64,000 nucleotides of DNA from a virus (IMGVR_UViG_3300025889_000073:64001-128000); one strand, 5' to 3'; shown: positions 3,945 to 9,973, counted from the first letter of the stretch. Notes: generated from the sequence alone by a model not told the origin. A program made the numbers and translations.

Positions 3945-3978
3945 AAAGGAGGCAAAGTCAATAAGTCCTCCTTTTTTT
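3945..3978 (+). terminator. Rho-independent terminator between convergent genes
   Basis: AAAGGAGG (3945-3952) and CCTCCTTT (3967-3974) form an inverted repeat followed by a T-run, just after the gp32 stop. Confidence 0.7.
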
Positions 3979-5788
3979 ATGACAATCTTTTATAGTATGC
4001 CGAACCCAAATCTTTTTTACTATCCCTTTTAATTGTTTTGTTCATTGCAACAACAGTTGTTTGCGGTGCATTTACAATAATTGGTGTTTGTGGCTTCATT
4101 TGTTGGCGCTGGCCAGAAGCAATTGAAGATGAAGCTGAAGCTACTGTTGAACCGCTGGCAGCCGTGCTTGTTCCGGTTATTTGTGGGTCATTTAAATAGG
4201 CTTCAAAATGTTCTTGTCTATCTTTTAAACCGATATAACCGCCATTGACGAATTTTGTCAATTTTTTAATATTACCCCAATCACCTTTGTAACCAGCCAT
4301 ATATTTTAAAGCACTTTCGGCCGCACCGGCCGGTTTTGTTAATTGGTCTGGGTCATTAACATAACCAAATCTGGTATAATTATTTTTGCCTGTAAGCTGT
4401 ATAAAGCCTCGGCCACGAAAATTCCATCCATCGCCGCCGCCTTCTGGTGCATTACCCATTCGGCCACCGTATATCCTCTCTGCAATACTTTTTGGTCCGC
4501 CTGCAGCGACTTTCTTTACATCATCTTGGCCAGAAAACTTTTTACCAAATAGTTTCATCAAAGTTGTTGGCCGATAATTTAAATTTTCACTTAGTGTGGT
4601 AAAACCTCCGGATTCGTGGCCAACTTGAGCCATGATTGCTGCTCTTTGTGTTGGATCCGTAATTTTTGCATTATCCATGGCTGCAATCATAGCTTGTTTA
4701 CCAGTTGAAGCACTTATTCTAACAGTTTTGGTACTTGATGTCGATTCTGGTTTCTTTTTTGTCGTAGGTGCTGGTGTGGTAGGAGCAGTTGCAGGTGCTG
4801 CAGCGGCTGGTGCAGGTTCTGGTGAAGTTGATTTTAACCTTAGTCCCCTGGTGCGGTGTGCCTTTCTACTTGCGGCCGCAGCTTTTGCTCTACCGGGGTC
4901 GGCAGGTGGTGTTGGTGGCGGTGCAGGTTTTGGTGCTGGTGCAGGAGGTGCCGGTGGTTCATATTCATCCATACCATACCCAAACTCTGAAGTTGCTGCA
5001 GCTGCTTGTTCACGTTTTACTTTATCTTCCGGTTTCTCTTTGATGAATGTGTTTTTAAATTTATCCCATTTTTCTTTTACTGAGTTCACCACACCCATAA
5101 ATTTATCCCAAATACCTTTTACATAACCAATTGCAACATCCGCAGCACCTTTTATTTTTTCAACAAAACCTTCAAACCAACTACCTATTTGGCCAAAAGC
5201 ATTTTTTACGGGTTCAACAATCCAATCATTAATAAAAGTTGATACTTTTTCCTTTATTGATTTTCCCAAATCTGTAAACCATGTTTTGATTTCTTGTACC
5301 CACTCATCAAATTTTGTTTTTATTGTTTCCCATAAATTTGAAGCCCATTCTTTAAAAGATTCGACTAAATCATCCCACAATAGTTGAAAATCTTCAGTTA
5401 ACGCTGCAATTGAAAAAACAGAAGCTAGAGCAATTAAAATATTTTCTAGCGAAAACATTTTTTTAATTTTTTGCCAAATACTCTCTTTCTTTTTGGTCTG
5501 AACAATTGGTGTAGGCGAAACATCCCCTTCTATTTTTTCCCTTTGTGCTTCTAGTGCAGCTTCACGTTCAGAAGCTTTTAAAAAAAATCTGTCTGCGCCT
5601 TGCCTTGGTTTTCCACCTTCAAGTTTAACCAGTTTTTGAGCCGCTTGTCGTGCAACATTTAAATCTCTTGCTACGTTTGGTAATACCAAGAAATTCTTAG
5701 AAATGATATTTAAAAATACTGATGCTTTATCAGATTTTACTGGTGATGATAGAGATGAGGATTTTTTACCTAAAATTTTATCTAACAT
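3977..5788 (-). CDS. Tape-measure/baseplate-hub-like protein with C-terminal GH19 (chitinase/lysozyme-fold) muramidase
   Basis: Amphipathic Trp/Phe-periodic helical region, Pro/Ala linker, then AAIMAQVGHESGGF..ENLNY..YGGRMGN..DGWNFRGRGFIQLTGKNNY..VNGG..GL.DR (GH19). Confidence 0.85.
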   Translation of the reverse strand: MLDKILGKKSSSLSSPVKSDKASVFLNIISKNFLVLPNVARDLNVARQAAQKLVKLEGGKPRQGADRFFLKASEREAALEAQREKIEGDVSPTPIVQTKKKESIWQKIKKMFSLENILIALASVFSIAALTEDFQLLWDDLVESFKEWASNLWETIKTKFDEWVQEIKTWFTDLGKSIKEKVSTFINDWIVEPVKNAFGQIGSWFEGFVEKIKGAADVAIGYVKGIWDKFMGVVNSVKEKWDKFKNTFIKEKPEDKVKREQAAAATSEFGYGMDEYEPPAPPAPAPKPAPPPTPPADPGRAKAAAASRKAHRTRGLRLKSTSPEPAPAAAAPATAPTTPAPTTKKKPESTSSTKTVRISASTGKQAMIAAMDNAKITDPTQRAAIMAQVGHESGGFTTLSENLNYRPTTLMKLFGKKFSGQDDVKKVAAGGPKSIAERIYGGRMGNAPEGGGDGWNFRGRGFIQLTGKNNYTRFGYVNDPDQLTKPAGAAESALKYMAGYKGDWGNIKKLTKFVNGGYIGLKDRQEHFEAYLNDPQITGTSTAASGSTVASASSSIASGQRQQMKPQTPIIVNAPQTTVVAMNKTIKRDSKKDLGSAYYKRLS

Positions 5789-5791
5789 TTT

Positions 5792-7702
5792 TTAATCCAT
5801 GTGTTGTAACAAATCTTCATCATGTGTGTCACCAATTTCATCATCATCATCTTGATTACTGGAACTCTTATTGGTTTTTTCAGCATTTATCATACTTCCT
5901 GAATCTGCTGCACTTTCCATTCTTTGTGATTCAGAAACACTTGATGATTCGGAAGAAATGCCAGCACCAGATGGAGAACCAGCTGATGAGCCAGAAGGTG
6001 TTATTGTTCCTCCTCCACTAGATGAGGTTTGTATAGATGTTCCTTCAGACACTCTTTTTGATAGACTCTTAACTTCTTCTGTTTGTTTGTCTTTCAACGC
6101 TTTTAGTTCTGGAATAGTTTCCCAATCATTCATTTTGACTCGGCCAATAATTTTACCTTCATCGTATAACTTATTAACTAAAGCTCTTCTTTCTTGGGCT
6201 TGTTTGTCTTCCATTTGTTGGAGCTGTTTTGAAGCTTCTTTTGCATCTGCTGATAAAACTCTTGTGGTGGTTTTAGAACCTCCACCAGTAGTTGTTGTGG
6301 ATGATGTGGATGATGTTTTGAAAGTCGAACCAGAAACTTTTGTTGGTTTCGTCATTACTTTTTCCAAATCATTATCGTCATCATCATCTTCTTTTTTCTG
6401 TCTCTTTAAAGCTGCTTCAACACCTGGTGCCATTTTTAATTTGGCCACAGTTGCTTTTTGATTTTTAATTAATGATTCCCATTTTTCATTTATAGCTCTC
6501 AATTCTGGAGGATATTCTGGGTCACTTGGGTCTTCTACAAAACCATCTTTATATTTCATAACTAAACTTTTGGCCATTTCGCCACGTTCTTTTTGCCAGT
6601 CAGAATACATTCCTTGCAATTCTGCTTGTGCCATTTCTAATTTTTGTAAGTTGTTATCACCTTCCATTTCAGCTTTGACGCTGTTAGTTTTGGTTGGTTT
6701 TTTAGTTTTGAGTTCAGCTTGTGTTGCTTTTGTTGGACTTTTACCTTTTGGTGGTTCTGGTTTCTTTTTAATTTCTGGTGCTTTAGGTCTTTCCATTTTA
6801 GGAGCTGGTATATCCGCATCTTTGACACCGGTATCAGAACCGAACAAACTAACGAACCAAGACTTTATACCATTAAATACTGAACCTATTTTTTCTAAAA
6901 TGGGATTTAAAAATCCTGATACCGAGTCCCAAACCGATTTTAAAGTATCTTCACCTAATAGTCCAAAGGTTAAGAAACTCATCATACCACCTAAACCAGA
7001 AAAAATAGCTTCACTTAAACTGCCGGTTTCTTGATATTTTTTCCAACCGGCTGTTATACCTGTAAATAATGTTGCAATGATTGTTAGAGGTAAAAAGACT
7101 TTACTGAATATTTTACCCAGCATTTTTGGTTTAAATAAATTTCTTATAAAACCAAAAACTGTTGTTTTAAAATTTTTAAATAAACCAGTTATACTGAATC
7201 CACCGCCACTATCTTCTTCTGTTTTAGTTATTACGGTTGGATTTGTTGGTTTACCTTCTATCTTTTCTTTTTGAGCTTCTAATGCGGCTTCTCTTTCTCC
7301 AGCTTTCAAAAAGAATCTATCAGCTGCACCTCTAGCTTGGCCACCTTTTAGTTTAACTAATTGTTGTAAGTTTTGACGTAGAACATTCATGTCTCTGGCA
7401 ATGTTTGGCATTACCATAGAGTTTTTTGCTACAACAGTTAATAGTGTTACAGACTCTTTGGATGTTATTGTATCGGATTCATCTTGTTTTTTATCCGAAC
7501 TTTTTATGTCGCCTAAAGAACCTTTACCTCTTATTTTACCTCTAATAAAAGCTGAAAGTATATCTTGACCTGGAAAAAATGATTCTGCTGCTAAATTTCT
7601 TGCATTTTTTACATTAAAGGTTTTACCTAAAGCTGAAGTTGCAGCTCCACCAAAACTTTTTCCAGATTGGAGTTCAGACAAGTATTTGTTTACTAGGGCC
7701 AT
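5792..7702 (-). CDS. Tape-measure (gp29-like) protein, paralog of the downstream gene
   Basis: Located after gp26/gp51; hydrophobic and amphipathic helices, coiled coils; shares the ARDxNVxRQ..LVKLxGG..ADRFFLKAxEREAALEAQxEKIEG block with 3977-5788. Confidence 0.6.
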   Translation of the reverse strand: MALVNKYLSELQSGKSFGGAATSALGKTFNVKNARNLAAESFFPGQDILSAFIRGKIRGKGSLGDIKSSDKKQDESDTITSKESVTLLTVVAKNSMVMPNIARDMNVLRQNLQQLVKLKGGQARGAADRFFLKAGEREAALEAQKEKIEGKPTNPTVITKTEEDSGGGFSITGLFKNFKTTVFGFIRNLFKPKMLGKIFSKVFLPLTIIATLFTGITAGWKKYQETGSLSEAIFSGLGGMMSFLTFGLLGEDTLKSVWDSVSGFLNPILEKIGSVFNGIKSWFVSLFGSDTGVKDADIPAPKMERPKAPEIKKKPEPPKGKSPTKATQAELKTKKPTKTNSVKAEMEGDNNLQKLEMAQAELQGMYSDWQKERGEMAKSLVMKYKDGFVEDPSDPEYPPELRAINEKWESLIKNQKATVAKLKMAPGVEAALKRQKKEDDDDDNDLEKVMTKPTKVSGSTFKTSSTSSTTTTGGGSKTTTRVLSADAKEASKQLQQMEDKQAQERRALVNKLYDEGKIIGRVKMNDWETIPELKALKDKQTEEVKSLSKRVSEGTSIQTSSSGGGTITPSGSSAGSPSGAGISSESSSVSESQRMESAADSGSMINAEKTNKSSSNQDDDDEIGDTHDEDLLQHMD

Positions 7703-7705
7703 TTT

Positions 7706-7900
7706 TTATCTTCTACTTTGTTTTTGTAATTCTAGTCGTTCTTTTTCTTCTTTTAGATAATTAACTAAAAGACCTACATATATTGTTCTTTCCCACGGCA
7801 ACATACTTTCCAATTCTGTGAGACTATATTTGTGGTGTTGTATCAATGCAAAATTAGTCTCATAATAATTTTTTAATGAATCATGACGAAAAATTAGACG
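7706..7900 (-). CDS. gp51: gp51-like baseplate hub assembly protein, probably expressed by -1 frameshift from gp26 (absent from ORF track)
   Basis: Manual translation RLIFRHDSLKNYYETNFALIQHHKYSLTELESMLPWERTIYVGLLVNYLKEEKERLELQKQSRR*; characteristic NYY.TNF.L.QHHKYSL.ELE.M.PWER.IY motif; no ATG for the conserved 5' part. Confidence 0.85.
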   Translation of the reverse strand, partial: RLIFRHDSLKNYYETNFALIQHHKYSLTELESMLPWERTIYVGLLVNYLKEEKERLELQKQSRR

Positions 7901-8625
7901 AAAAAATTTTGTATACCCTTTATTTCCACACTTTCTTCATAAGAACACTTTGGACATTTGAAAGCAATATCCTTTTTAATTTCAGGCATTGATTGGAAGA
8001 AATCTTTAAATTTTTCAATATCTTTTTGTTGCAAGTTGTCAACAAATTCTTCAAGTTCTTTTGGGTCTGTATCTTTAGAACGATATATTTGTTCATCATC
8101 ATAAATGTAATCGATACAGTCAACCAAAATTTTCATAATAATTTCATTTTCTTCCATATTATCATATTTTTGCAACATATCGAATGTTGGATATTTAAAA
8201 CAAATTCCTAACTTTTCCGTCAGCTGAATTTTGTTCTTGTGATTTTCGTGTTTTGTTGGTTCTATTTCTAAAAGATTGACATCAAATTCAACAACACCGT
8301 TACAAGTTTTTTCTTCACCATCTTCATTGGGTACTTTATTGTTGCACTTGTATGATAGGTGTACAACTTCTTCGACAGACCTTGCTCTGAGATTTAAAAA
8401 TAAGTATTCTAAATCAAAAGTCGGTAAATTGTCTATATTGATATCATCAATCACACAATTTTTTAATACCTGTCTAACTATTGAAACCATTTCATTTGGG
8501 TCGTTTGATTCGGATGACATTAGAAATAATTTCTGTTCTTTAACCAAAAATGGCCGAAATCTAACAGGTTTTCCTGTTGAAATTAAATCGATTGAATAAA
8601 TTGGTATGTCTAATTTTGGTAACAT
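7894..8625 (-). CDS. gp26: gp26-like baseplate hub assembly chaperone
   Basis: MLPKLDIP..STGKPVRFRPFLVKEQK, FDLEYLFLNLRARSV, two Cys pairs, ends GIQNFF. Confidence 0.88.
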   Translation of the reverse strand: MLPKLDIPIYSIDLISTGKPVRFRPFLVKEQKLFLMSSESNDPNEMVSIVRQVLKNCVIDDINIDNLPTFDLEYLFLNLRARSVEEVVHLSYKCNNKVPNEDGEEKTCNGVVEFDVNLLEIEPTKHENHKNKIQLTEKLGICFKYPTFDMLQKYDNMEENEIIMKILVDCIDYIYDDEQIYRSKDTDPKELEEFVDNLQQKDIEKFKDFFQSMPEIKKDIAFKCPKCSYEESVEIKGIQNFFV

Positions 8626-8644: not shown

Positions 8645-9394
8645 TTAAAATGCACTTCCTAGTGGTAAAATTCTCGCAGCAGCAGAACCAAATAAAGATG
8701 TTGCAGCAGAAGCTAAATCAAAAGTGCCTTGATAAATTGTTTTATATCTCTGATAAGCAAACTGAACTGAAAGTCTATGAAAACTATCATCAGCCCAACT
8801 TAAAGATTGTGGTGCTATTCCAATGGGAAAAGCATCAATTAATTCTACAGCATGAATTTGCCTAACCAATTCATCATATTGAATAATTTTAATATTAGTT
8901 AGGTATCTTGTTGTGGAACCTTTTGCATATCTCAAATTGTTTGTGTCCGAAGGATGTATTGCTTCAATCCAACGGTCAAATAATTTTCTTTCAAAAAAAT
9001 CATTGGTACACAAAAAAGTTAAATTTGTGTCACCATAAGATGTCTGATATGGCACCTTAAATGTAGGACCATATATTTTAACATCAGATGTTTGTAATGT
9101 CTTTCCTGGAAATTCTGCACTCTCACATTGTAGAGCTAGATATCTAGACACGGAAGAATTTGATGTTCTTGATTGTTCGTCTTGAGCTCCCTGAGAACCA
9201 AAAGCTCCTCGTATAGCGTCTGTAACGTCATTAAAAACTGAATTGGGAAAATTCAATATCTTTTCTATAATTGAACTTCCAATAAAACTATTTACATATG
9301 GGGGTATTGGTAATAAAACTTCGAATCTATTTGGCCTTGCTAAACCATCTTTTGCTCGAATGTTTGATAAAAATAAGTTAGGTGAGAATGACAT
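8645..9394 (-). CDS. Tail-tube-fold baseplate/tail tube initiator (gp54/gp19-like)
   Basis: GLARPNRFEV, CESAEFPGK, KVPY..YGDTNLTF, ERKLFDRW, LIDAFP..I...L.W, L.VQFAY. Confidence 0.75.
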   Translation of the reverse strand: MSFSPNLFLSNIRAKDGLARPNRFEVLLPIPPYVNSFIGSSIIEKILNFPNSVFNDVTDAIRGAFGSQGAQDEQSRTSNSSVSRYLALQCESAEFPGKTLQTSDVKIYGPTFKVPYQTSYGDTNLTFLCTNDFFERKLFDRWIEAIHPSDTNNLRYAKGSTTRYLTNIKIIQYDELVRQIHAVELIDAFPIGIAPQSLSWADDSFHRLSVQFAYQRYKTIYQGTFDLASAATSLFGSAAARILPLGSAF

Positions 9395-9973
9395 TTAAAA
9401 TTTCTTCCTTGAGTCTGACCATACCTTACTGTTGCTAGCACCAGAGAAATTTTCAGCTGGTAAGAATGAAGCAATGTCCCATTCGTTAGATTTTATTTCT
9501 AAAAATCTCGATTTGACATGAGTAAAGTAGTATCGTTTTATGCATGGTCCTTTTTCAAACATTTTGGACGATGCTTTTAGAAAGGGATAACTTAACATCA
9601 ATTTTGTATTTTCATCATAGTCTTTATCTGAAATTACTTCACTCAATTTGTCCAAAAAAATGATTCGTTGCTTTGGGTGTATGTAATGTAAATTTAACCC
9701 TAAAAAACCGTCTGAGTACTGTTCTATTGGTATGACCAATGGGAACCTGTCGTAATATGGCAACGAATCTTTTAACTTTGGATTATAAAAGAAAAAATAC
9801 ATTTTACCAATAATTGTGTTTGCCCTAAGTCTGGCCTTATCGTTAATCAAATTCCTTGGGTTCGCAGACAAATTCTTGACCTGCGTTTGAAGCCATCTCC
9901 TCGCTGCGTTGGACCGCTCCGAGAGACCTTCTTTTGCAAGAGATTGTTGAATTCTATCGATAAGTTTTGCCAT
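9395..9973 (-). CDS. gp2: gp2 DNA end protector protein
   Basis: GKMYFFFYNPK.KD.LPYYDRFPLV, GFLGLNLHY, CIKRY, EWDIASFLP, VW.DS. Confidence 0.93.
   Translation of the reverse strand: MAKLIDRIQQSLAKEGLSERSNAARRWLQTQVKNLSANPRNLINDKARLRANTIIGKMYFFFYNPKLKDSLPYYDRFPLVIPIEQYSDGFLGLNLHYIHPKQRIIFLDKLSEVISDKDYDENTKLMLSYPFLKASSKMFEKGPCIKRYYFTHVKSRFLEIKSNEWDIASFLPAENFSGASNSKVWSDSRKKF

Follow-up and report, generated by a model that had tools for sequence, protein, structure and literature searches.

According to a major review, the -1 ribosomal frameshift within tail-chaperone genes is a conserved feature of long-tailed phages, "except T4" (Atkins et al. 2016, PMC5009743), and the locus considered here raises the question of whether T4-like phages carry such a frameshift after all, in genes known under other names. 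The locus lies in a 64,000-nucleotide stretch of viral DNA (IMGVR_UViG_3300025889_000073:64001-128000; hereafter, the window) that forms part of a complete, 171,728-base virus record from a T4-like phage. On the minus strand of the window, a gene of the gp26 type ends in a slippery heptamer and a stop codon, and a gp51-type "tail" lacking any early start codon follows in the -1 frame. An original prediction, made from the DNA alone, held that the two are fused by programmed frameshifting into a tail-chaperone pair resembling gpG and gpGT of phage lambda. Comparison with relatives now argues that the gp26-type gene quite probably encodes an assembly chaperone for the tail (baseplate hub and tape measure) and is decoded in two ways through a -1 slip.

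The anatomy of the junction can be read directly from the window, in which all of the features described below lie on the minus strand. The short form of the gp26-type gene (7894-8625; 243 residues plus TAA) belongs to the baseplate-hub assembly chaperone family, with a match to Pfam PF12322 (T4_baseplate) at an expectation value (E) of 1.3e-60 and 205 bits against a cut-off of 24.5, covering profile positions 2-218 of 219, and a match to PHROG 150 at E 3e-65. It is the sole PF12322 gene in the entire 171,728-base genome. Its 3' end reads CAA AAT TTT TTC GTC TAA, placing the heptamer T_TTT_TTC (7900-7906) in the X_XXY_YYZ phase of gp26, with the 0-frame stop TAA (7894-7896) one codon beyond it, precisely as had been predicted. 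From C7900, the -1 frame begins RLIFRHDSLKNYYETNFALIQHHKYSLTELESMLPWER and continues for 64 codons to a TAA at 7708-7706, the tail thereby occupying 7706-7900; upstream, this frame opens just 10 codons before the slip site. The gp51-type character claimed for these 64 codons was borne out by a match to PHROG 634, "baseplate hub assembly catalyst" (a short gp51), at E 2.3e-26 over profile positions 58-118 of 121, and the tail has a second match, to the C-terminal end of the gp26 family itself (PHROG 150, positions 234-279 of 282). A -1 slip at 7906-7900 would join 242 residues of gp26 to the 64 of the tail, for a predicted long form of 306 residues (7706-8625); the fusion proposed originally is therefore retained, with its length of roughly 305 residues corrected by one.

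By itself, such a heptamer carries little information. TTTTTTC occurs 51 times in the AT-rich window, relative to 48.7 +/- 6.5 times in shuffled sequences, and is thus not enriched; since the heptamer alone is present at chance frequency, a comparative test was needed, and the original prediction had itself named the alignment of gp26-gp51 junctions as a check. Loci related to gp26 were collected from IMG/VR, JGI metagenomes, and GenBank phages, and removal of duplicates left 219 distinct single-gene junctions, spanning the clade of the window, cyanophages, and other marine and freshwater clades. TTTTTTN was found in the X_XXY_YYZ phase at all 219 junctions (C at 181, T at 22, and A at 16), and the tail lies in the -1 frame at every one of them; these raw counts are inflated by phylogenetic non-independence, although the pattern still spans clades down to approximately 20% protein identity. 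The 0-frame stop falls 0 or 1 codon past the heptamer in 210 of the 219. The same heptamer and -1 phase are also seen in one representative each of Vibrio D484, Aeromonas AS-szw, Cronobacter S13, Xanthomonas BUDD, Caulobacter Cr30, and Sinorhizobium phiN3, whose gp26 proteins are only about 20-30% identical to that of the window. The position, phase, and conservation of the heptamer exceed chance.

This conservation is, to judge from codon usage, exerted on nucleotides and not on amino acids, because three observations on codons coincide. First, the other Phe-Phe pairs in gp26 genes of the window clade use mixed codons (TTCTTT 36 times, TTTTTT 23 times, and TTTTTC and TTCTTC once each). Second, the last codon of the heptamer is TTA at 16 loci, replacing Phe with Leu and leaving the T-run in place. 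Third, the gp26 genes of T4-type phages, which have no tail downstream, lack the heptamer: the equivalent Phe-Phe pair is written TTC TTT in RB27 and its relatives, and is missing altogether from gp26 of Acinetobacter phage AB1I1P. At six marine loci (L218, L236, L237, L240, L260, and L275), the nearby 0-frame stop has mutated (e.g., TAG to TCG), such that the short form gains 8-9 residues; all six retain an unchanged heptamer and tail.

The tail itself behaves as coding sequence well before any codon at which it might be initiated. No ATG, GTG, or TTG is present at or before post-slip codon +4 in 152 of the 219 junctions, and none precedes codon +13 in 116 of them. At 22 loci, the -1 frame is closed by a stop no more than 3 codons upstream of the slip, meaning that the heptamer is, in effect, where the frame opens. 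Among 40 window-clade loci whose first possible start lies at +18 or later, the ratio of nonsynonymous to synonymous polymorphism (pN/pS) across tail codons 3-18 was 0.16 in the -1 frame and 1.26 and 0.87 in the other two frames; the corresponding figure for the gp26 body was 0.22. Likewise, the alignment of tails is conserved from its first residues onward (R-x-x-L-S-H-x-S-L-x-N-Y-Y-x-T-N-F). By this pattern of substitution, the start-less stretch evolves as translated protein in the -1 frame.

The window is a clear case in point. Its tail frame contains neither ATG nor GTG, and the Met of many homologs (ALMQHH) is replaced by ATA, the latter as noted in the original prediction; the sole canonical start is a TTG at 7844-7846, tail residue 19, which would open a reading frame of 7706-7846. 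The AlphaFold2 model of the tail, which was built separately from that of the gp26 body, shows helices at residues 9-22, 27-31, and 35-63, with a mean predicted local distance difference test score (pLDDT) of 82.8. Initiation at the TTG would forfeit 18 conserved residues and cut through the first predicted helix.

These results also dispose of most of the case for a tail without function, namely, that it is the decaying remnant of a fused gene beside a T-run that arose by chance in AT-rich DNA. The frequency of TTTTTTC in the window, which is no greater than in shuffles, would fit such an account. It is nevertheless contradicted already by the junction conservation and pN/pS results and must be considered exceedingly improbable: the heptamer is found at 219 of 219 junctions, including those of clades whose gp26 is 20-40% identical, the tail is intact at 52-70 codons at every locus, and its pN/pS is as low as that of the gp26 body.

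The arrangement in T4-type phages bears directly on the stated exception. In the T4-type phage RB27, genes 26 and 51 are transcribed divergently, which precludes a fusion. RB27 gp51 (249 residues) matches PF12322 over residues 1-201 (E 4.3e-55), and its C-terminus, residues ~206-244, is homologous to the tail (E 3e-5 by hhalign of the tail against T4-type gp51 residues 206-244); judged by these matches, T4-type gp51 is a full gp26-family domain with a tail attached. Predicted fusions from 10 clades align with T4-type gp51 without a gap through the junction (NFF/RLIF against DVF/KLLV), and T4 gp26 ends three residues past the aligned junction point. The short form of the window is a homolog of T4 gp26 (208 residues) and its predicted long form is colinear with T4 gp51 (249 residues). 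The difference is that T4-type phages possess two separate, divergent paralogs, with a gp26 that lacks the heptamer, whereas the window has one gene and a -1 tail, which must therefore supply both forms.

Copy number follows suit. Two PF12322 genes are present in RB27, relative to one each in the window genome, S-PM2, ACG-2014d, D484, AS-szw, Cr30, UPM2146, S13, BUDD, and phiN3, and Acinetobacter phage AB1I1P, from which the heptamer is absent, has a divergent long gp51. PF12322 copy number is thus complementary between the T4-type and frameshift-type arrangements. The paralogy of gp26 and gp51 is already implicit in Pfam. In a maximum-likelihood tree, a branch with support 96/95 separates T4-type gp26 and the N-domains of gp51 from all single-copy genes, a split that, in an unrooted tree with a long gp51 branch, fits a duplication within the T4 lineage. 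The original identification of gp26/gp51 as a G/GT-like pair is supported, but the fusion applies to the T4-like relatives and not to T4 proper, where the two genes diverge.

Earlier work on T4-like phages contains observations that the frameshift arrangement would account for. The hub assembly chaperones listed for T4 include both gp26 and gp51, of which gp51 is not found in the particle (Leiman et al. 2010, PMC3004832). The gp51 of cyanophages and vibriophages was reported to lack the first ~200 residues, and gp51 was seemingly missing from Aeh1-type phages (Sullivan et al. 2010, PMC3037559). The frameshift arrangement accounts for both of the latter observations; in the Aeh1-like phage AS-szw, for example, the heptamer is present and the tail has no ATG until codon 31.

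Several results weigh against two-way decoding of a chaperone gene, and the first of these concerns starts. A start codon is present within 4 codons of the slip in 57 of the 219 loci, and several database records annotate a separate, short gp51 at that nearby start. On a rival account, no fusion is made at all: ribosomes would re-initiate close to the stop, on a canonical or near-cognate codon, and produce the tail as a separate, short gp51, the -1 phase being nothing more than the usual phase of overlap. ATGA and TAATG overlaps do give this phase naturally, and in Vibrio D484, Cr30, phiN3, S-PM2, and P-RSM6, an ATG lies 0-4 codons from the gp26 stop and is annotated as the start of gp51; such starts are those counted at 57 of the 219 junctions. 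Re-initiation in place of a fusion is, however, improbable. No canonical start lies near the stop at the majority of junctions tallied above (152 of 219), the window has none before residue 19, and relatives encode Thr, Ser, Ala, or Val at the +2 position of the near-cognate Ile codon, which is not conserved. Purifying selection on the start-less codons speaks against it as well. Moreover, re-initiation leaves unexplained why a phase-locked, invariant T-run should be kept even where the last codon is TTA or the stop has moved by 8-9 codons, and why the heptamer is lacking from the only genomes that have a separate, full-length gp51. The independent initiation that the original prediction held up as its alternative consequently does not account for the data, although in lineages with an ATG beside the stop it may coexist with, add to, or replace the slip.

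Deviant slip sites form the second set of adverse observations. All 20 of the 20 Ackermannviridae have the non-canonical site R_ATT_TTC (GAR ATT TTC ATY TAA), and Vibrio phage D493 has A_CTT_TTC (CTT TTC AAG TAA); the non-canonical loci are L088 and L180-L199 for the Ackermannviridae and L200 for D493. In Rhizobium phage RHph_I1_9 (L201), the site is T_TTT_TTG, with the Leu codon UUG in the A site, and an ATG overlaps the gp26 stop, so that this lineage may be shifting from slippage to coupled initiation. The Ackermannviridae and D493 nonetheless keep the -1 tail, with a pN/pS of 0.05-0.08 upstream of any start, which suggests that at their sites a slip occurs in the A site only, from UUC to UUU.

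These same sites help to separate ribosomal slippage from slippage by RNA polymerase, which might add an extra U on the T6-T8 run and so produce the long form with no ribosomal slip whatsoever. The conserved element is indeed a run of 6-8 identical bases (T), the same protein would result from an inserted U, and two metagenomic proteins, P0003 and P0034, read through the junction in one frame, as would be expected if they derive from complementary DNA (cDNA). Runs of six T, however, are shorter than those of known bacterial cases in which the polymerase slips appreciably (Atkins et al. 2016). The Ackermannviridae retain only TTTT followed by C, yet have the same -1 tail under the same constraint ahead of any start, and an A-site slip from UUC to UUU therefore fits them better than polymerase slippage does. 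The codon phase of the run is fixed at every locus, and other proteins in the same list resemble indel artefacts. Slippage during transcription is, for these reasons, an improbable source of the long form.

The list in question came from a public protein search that returned 34 matches to longer, tail-containing proteins. In metagenomic gene calls P0003, P0005, P0006, P0008, and P0034, a single frame carries both the C-terminus of gp26 and the tail; the sequence of P0007 is garbled, and that of P0011 permuted. Three of the one-frame proteins (P0005, P0006, and P0008) switch frame before the heptamer, at runs of G or A. Specifically, the change in P0008 (291 residues) occurs at an A-run some 15 codons before the heptamer, and this protein lacks a -1 frame stop that is present in relatives 84% identical to it. 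Such one-frame proteins could be natural, hard-wired variants, cDNA products, or homopolymer errors. Tail-containing proteins also carry the precomputed Pfam accession PF28602, and the tail family may be newly created.

Assignment of gp26 to a chaperone fold rests on its predicted structure. The AlphaFold2 model of the window gp26 (mean pLDDT 86.2) was compared with 48,161 solved chains by VIA-align, and the four top matches, all to residues 1-94, were 3fgx (Z 7.3), 3klu (Z 7.1), 2ob9 (Z 7.1), and 5ir0 (Z 5.8), followed by a fifth at Z 4.6. Each of the four aligned over 82-85 residues, covering most of each chain, at an identity of 4-15%. All four are termed tail assembly chaperones (PMC9603447, PMC12987554), comprising Rbstp2171 (3fgx), YqbN (3klu), the HK97 tail assembly chaperone (2ob9), and the PLE1 chaperone (5ir0). 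On the model, a tail-assembly-chaperone-like fold would thus occupy the N-terminal domain, approximately residues 1-90 (8356-8625), and gp26 differs from the solved chaperones in having ~150 further residues. To be set against this assignment, the match is moderate, with a Z of about 7 lying in a range where it may reflect a mere common arrangement; Foldseek E-values for the gp26 model are weak; and no sequence-level link to a chaperone family emerged from a profile search of PDB sequences, from Pfam on the N-domain, or from NCBIfam. For these reasons, the predicted membership of gp26 in this fold is only suggestive.

Gene order points in the same direction as the fold. On the minus strand, a tube-fold gene is followed by gp26, the tail, and then the tape-measure-like genes, which is the synteny of lambda G/GT. 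The placement of the pair directly upstream of the tape-measure-like genes, as originally described, holds to the base: the first of these genes starts at 7702, three bases past the tail stop. Together, the four coherent top matches and the synteny make the analogy with lambda G/GT a well-founded one.

Under the mechanism considered most likely, most ribosomes would read AAT TTT TTC GTC and stop at TAA, releasing the 243-residue short form. A minority, with two tRNA-Phe on UUU UUC (7906-7900), would slip back one base and re-pair with UUU UUU. This tandem -1 slippage on U_UUU_UUC would give access to 64 more codons and yield the 306-residue long form, ending in a small, three-helix tail. If lambda gpG and gpGT are a guide, the body common to both forms would bind the tape-measure protein, whose gene lies just downstream, the tail would bring in a partner from the tube or hub, and neither form would stay in the virion. 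T4-type phages, in turn, would have swapped recoding for two paralogs, with 26 as the short form from which the heptamer was lost and 51 as a hard-wired long form.

Elements that might stimulate such a slip are less uniform than the heptamer. When 60-74 nucleotides past the heptamer were folded at 26 loci, no stable or conserved RNA structure was found in the window clade (z about 0), which must be counted against a programmed slip; the window itself gave a folding free energy (dG) of -7.3 kcal/mol and a z of -0.7. A strong hairpin does lie approximately 9 nucleotides past the heptamer in some cyanophages (S-PM2, L002:2501-2560; also L003 and L145), and that of S-PM2 has a 14-bp stem, a 9-nucleotide spacer, a dG of -15 kcal/mol, and a z of -4.1. 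Upstream of the heptamer, pairing with the anti-Shine-Dalgarno sequence ranks in the top 2-4% of gp26 positions, both in the window clade and in cyanophages. The Shine-Dalgarno-like AAGGG or GGAGG responsible is situated 9-10 nucleotides upstream, a dnaX-like spacing; in the window, AAGGG occupies 7916-7920, 9 bases from the heptamer, and is a candidate dnaX-type stimulator. This signal is confounded, because its codons encode a conserved (K/E/R)-G and because the T4-type control, which does not frameshift, has it too, another point on the adverse side; it is absent from the Ackermannviridae. A stimulatory role for it is possible.

Frameshifted chaperone pairs are by no means new as a kind of system. 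The lambda gpG/gpGT pair and the conservation of its -1 frameshift among chaperone genes were reportedly established by Levin, Hendrix and Casjens in 1993 and by Xu, Hendrix and Duda in 2004. The window resembles the lambda system in its overlapping frames between a tube-fold gene and tape-measure genes, in a slippery heptamer within one or two codons of the upstream stop, in a -1 extension that has no start of its own, in the want of any evident strong stimulatory structure, in products that would be assembly factors and not parts of the virion (by homology with T4 gp26 and gp51), and in an N-domain whose modelled fold gives moderate matches to solved chaperones. It differs from lambda in belonging to PF12322, a family that resembles no known chaperone family in sequence; in a body of 243 residues, with extra domains beyond the ~90-residue chaperone fold; in a heptamer of U_UUU_UUC, not G_GGA_AAG; and in a tail of only ~60 residues. 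In contractile-tailed phages, gpE/gpE+E' of P2 and the corresponding pairs of Mu-type phages are likewise -1 frameshifted chaperone pairs upstream of the tape measure, in sequence families unrelated to that of the window. Finally, the 10A/10B frameshift of T7 uses the site G_GUU_UUC, where slippage of an A-site UUC to UUU, a few codons short of the stop, leads to a brief extension of the C-terminus. The R_AUU_UUC of the Ackermannviridae resembles this site, although gene 10 of T7 encodes a capsid protein and not a chaperone.

What appears to be new is the presence of this kind of system in the T4-like assemblage, within a gene family that looks unrelated. No report of a gp26-gp51 frameshift was found in searches of the openly available full-text literature, and a joined coding sequence was annotated in none of the 14 GenBank records inspected. 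It is tempting to go further and suggest that the chaperone frameshift is universal and ancestral to the T4-like assemblage, here meaning the Kyanoviridae, most Straboviridae outside the T-even group, the Ackermannviridae, pelagimyophages, phiM12-like phages, and others, with gp26 as a genuine, highly diverged homolog of the lambda-G/HK97 type and the essential gene 51, long a puzzle, as a "GT" that was hard-wired by a duplication that made recoding unnecessary. This broader proposal is somewhat better than an even prospect. If true, it would remove the sole stated exception to a recoding event that ranks among the most conserved in virology, and T4 gp26 and gp51 would be, respectively, the short and the long version of a chaperone for the tape measure and hub. 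Among deposited T4-like genomes, hundreds would then misannotate or omit this gene product, and the T4 lineage would represent a natural experiment in which a programmed frameshift was replaced by gene duplication.

The genes surrounding the pair are those of a tail module. Directly upstream of gp26 lies the tail-tube-fold gene (8645-9394), which is gp54/gp48-like and matches PHROG 45 (E 1e-34) and PHROG 3629, "tail tube" (E 1e-31); the syntenic gene is labelled tail tube or tube initiator in the annotation of relatives. It is preceded by a gene for a gp2-like DNA end protector (9395-9973). Downstream, the first tape-measure-like gene (5792-7702; 636 residues) shares an N-terminal block with the gene that follows it and has no family match of its own. 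The second (3977-5788; 603 residues) matches tape-measure PHROGs 1272, 991, 58, and 167 at residues ~100-250 and carries a C-terminal, lysozyme/chitinase-like domain, with residues 366-533 matching endolysin PHROG 181 at E 5e-51. The interval 3977-7702 is therefore occupied by tandem, paralogous tape-measure-like genes, with the tape-measure PHROG matches confined to the second.

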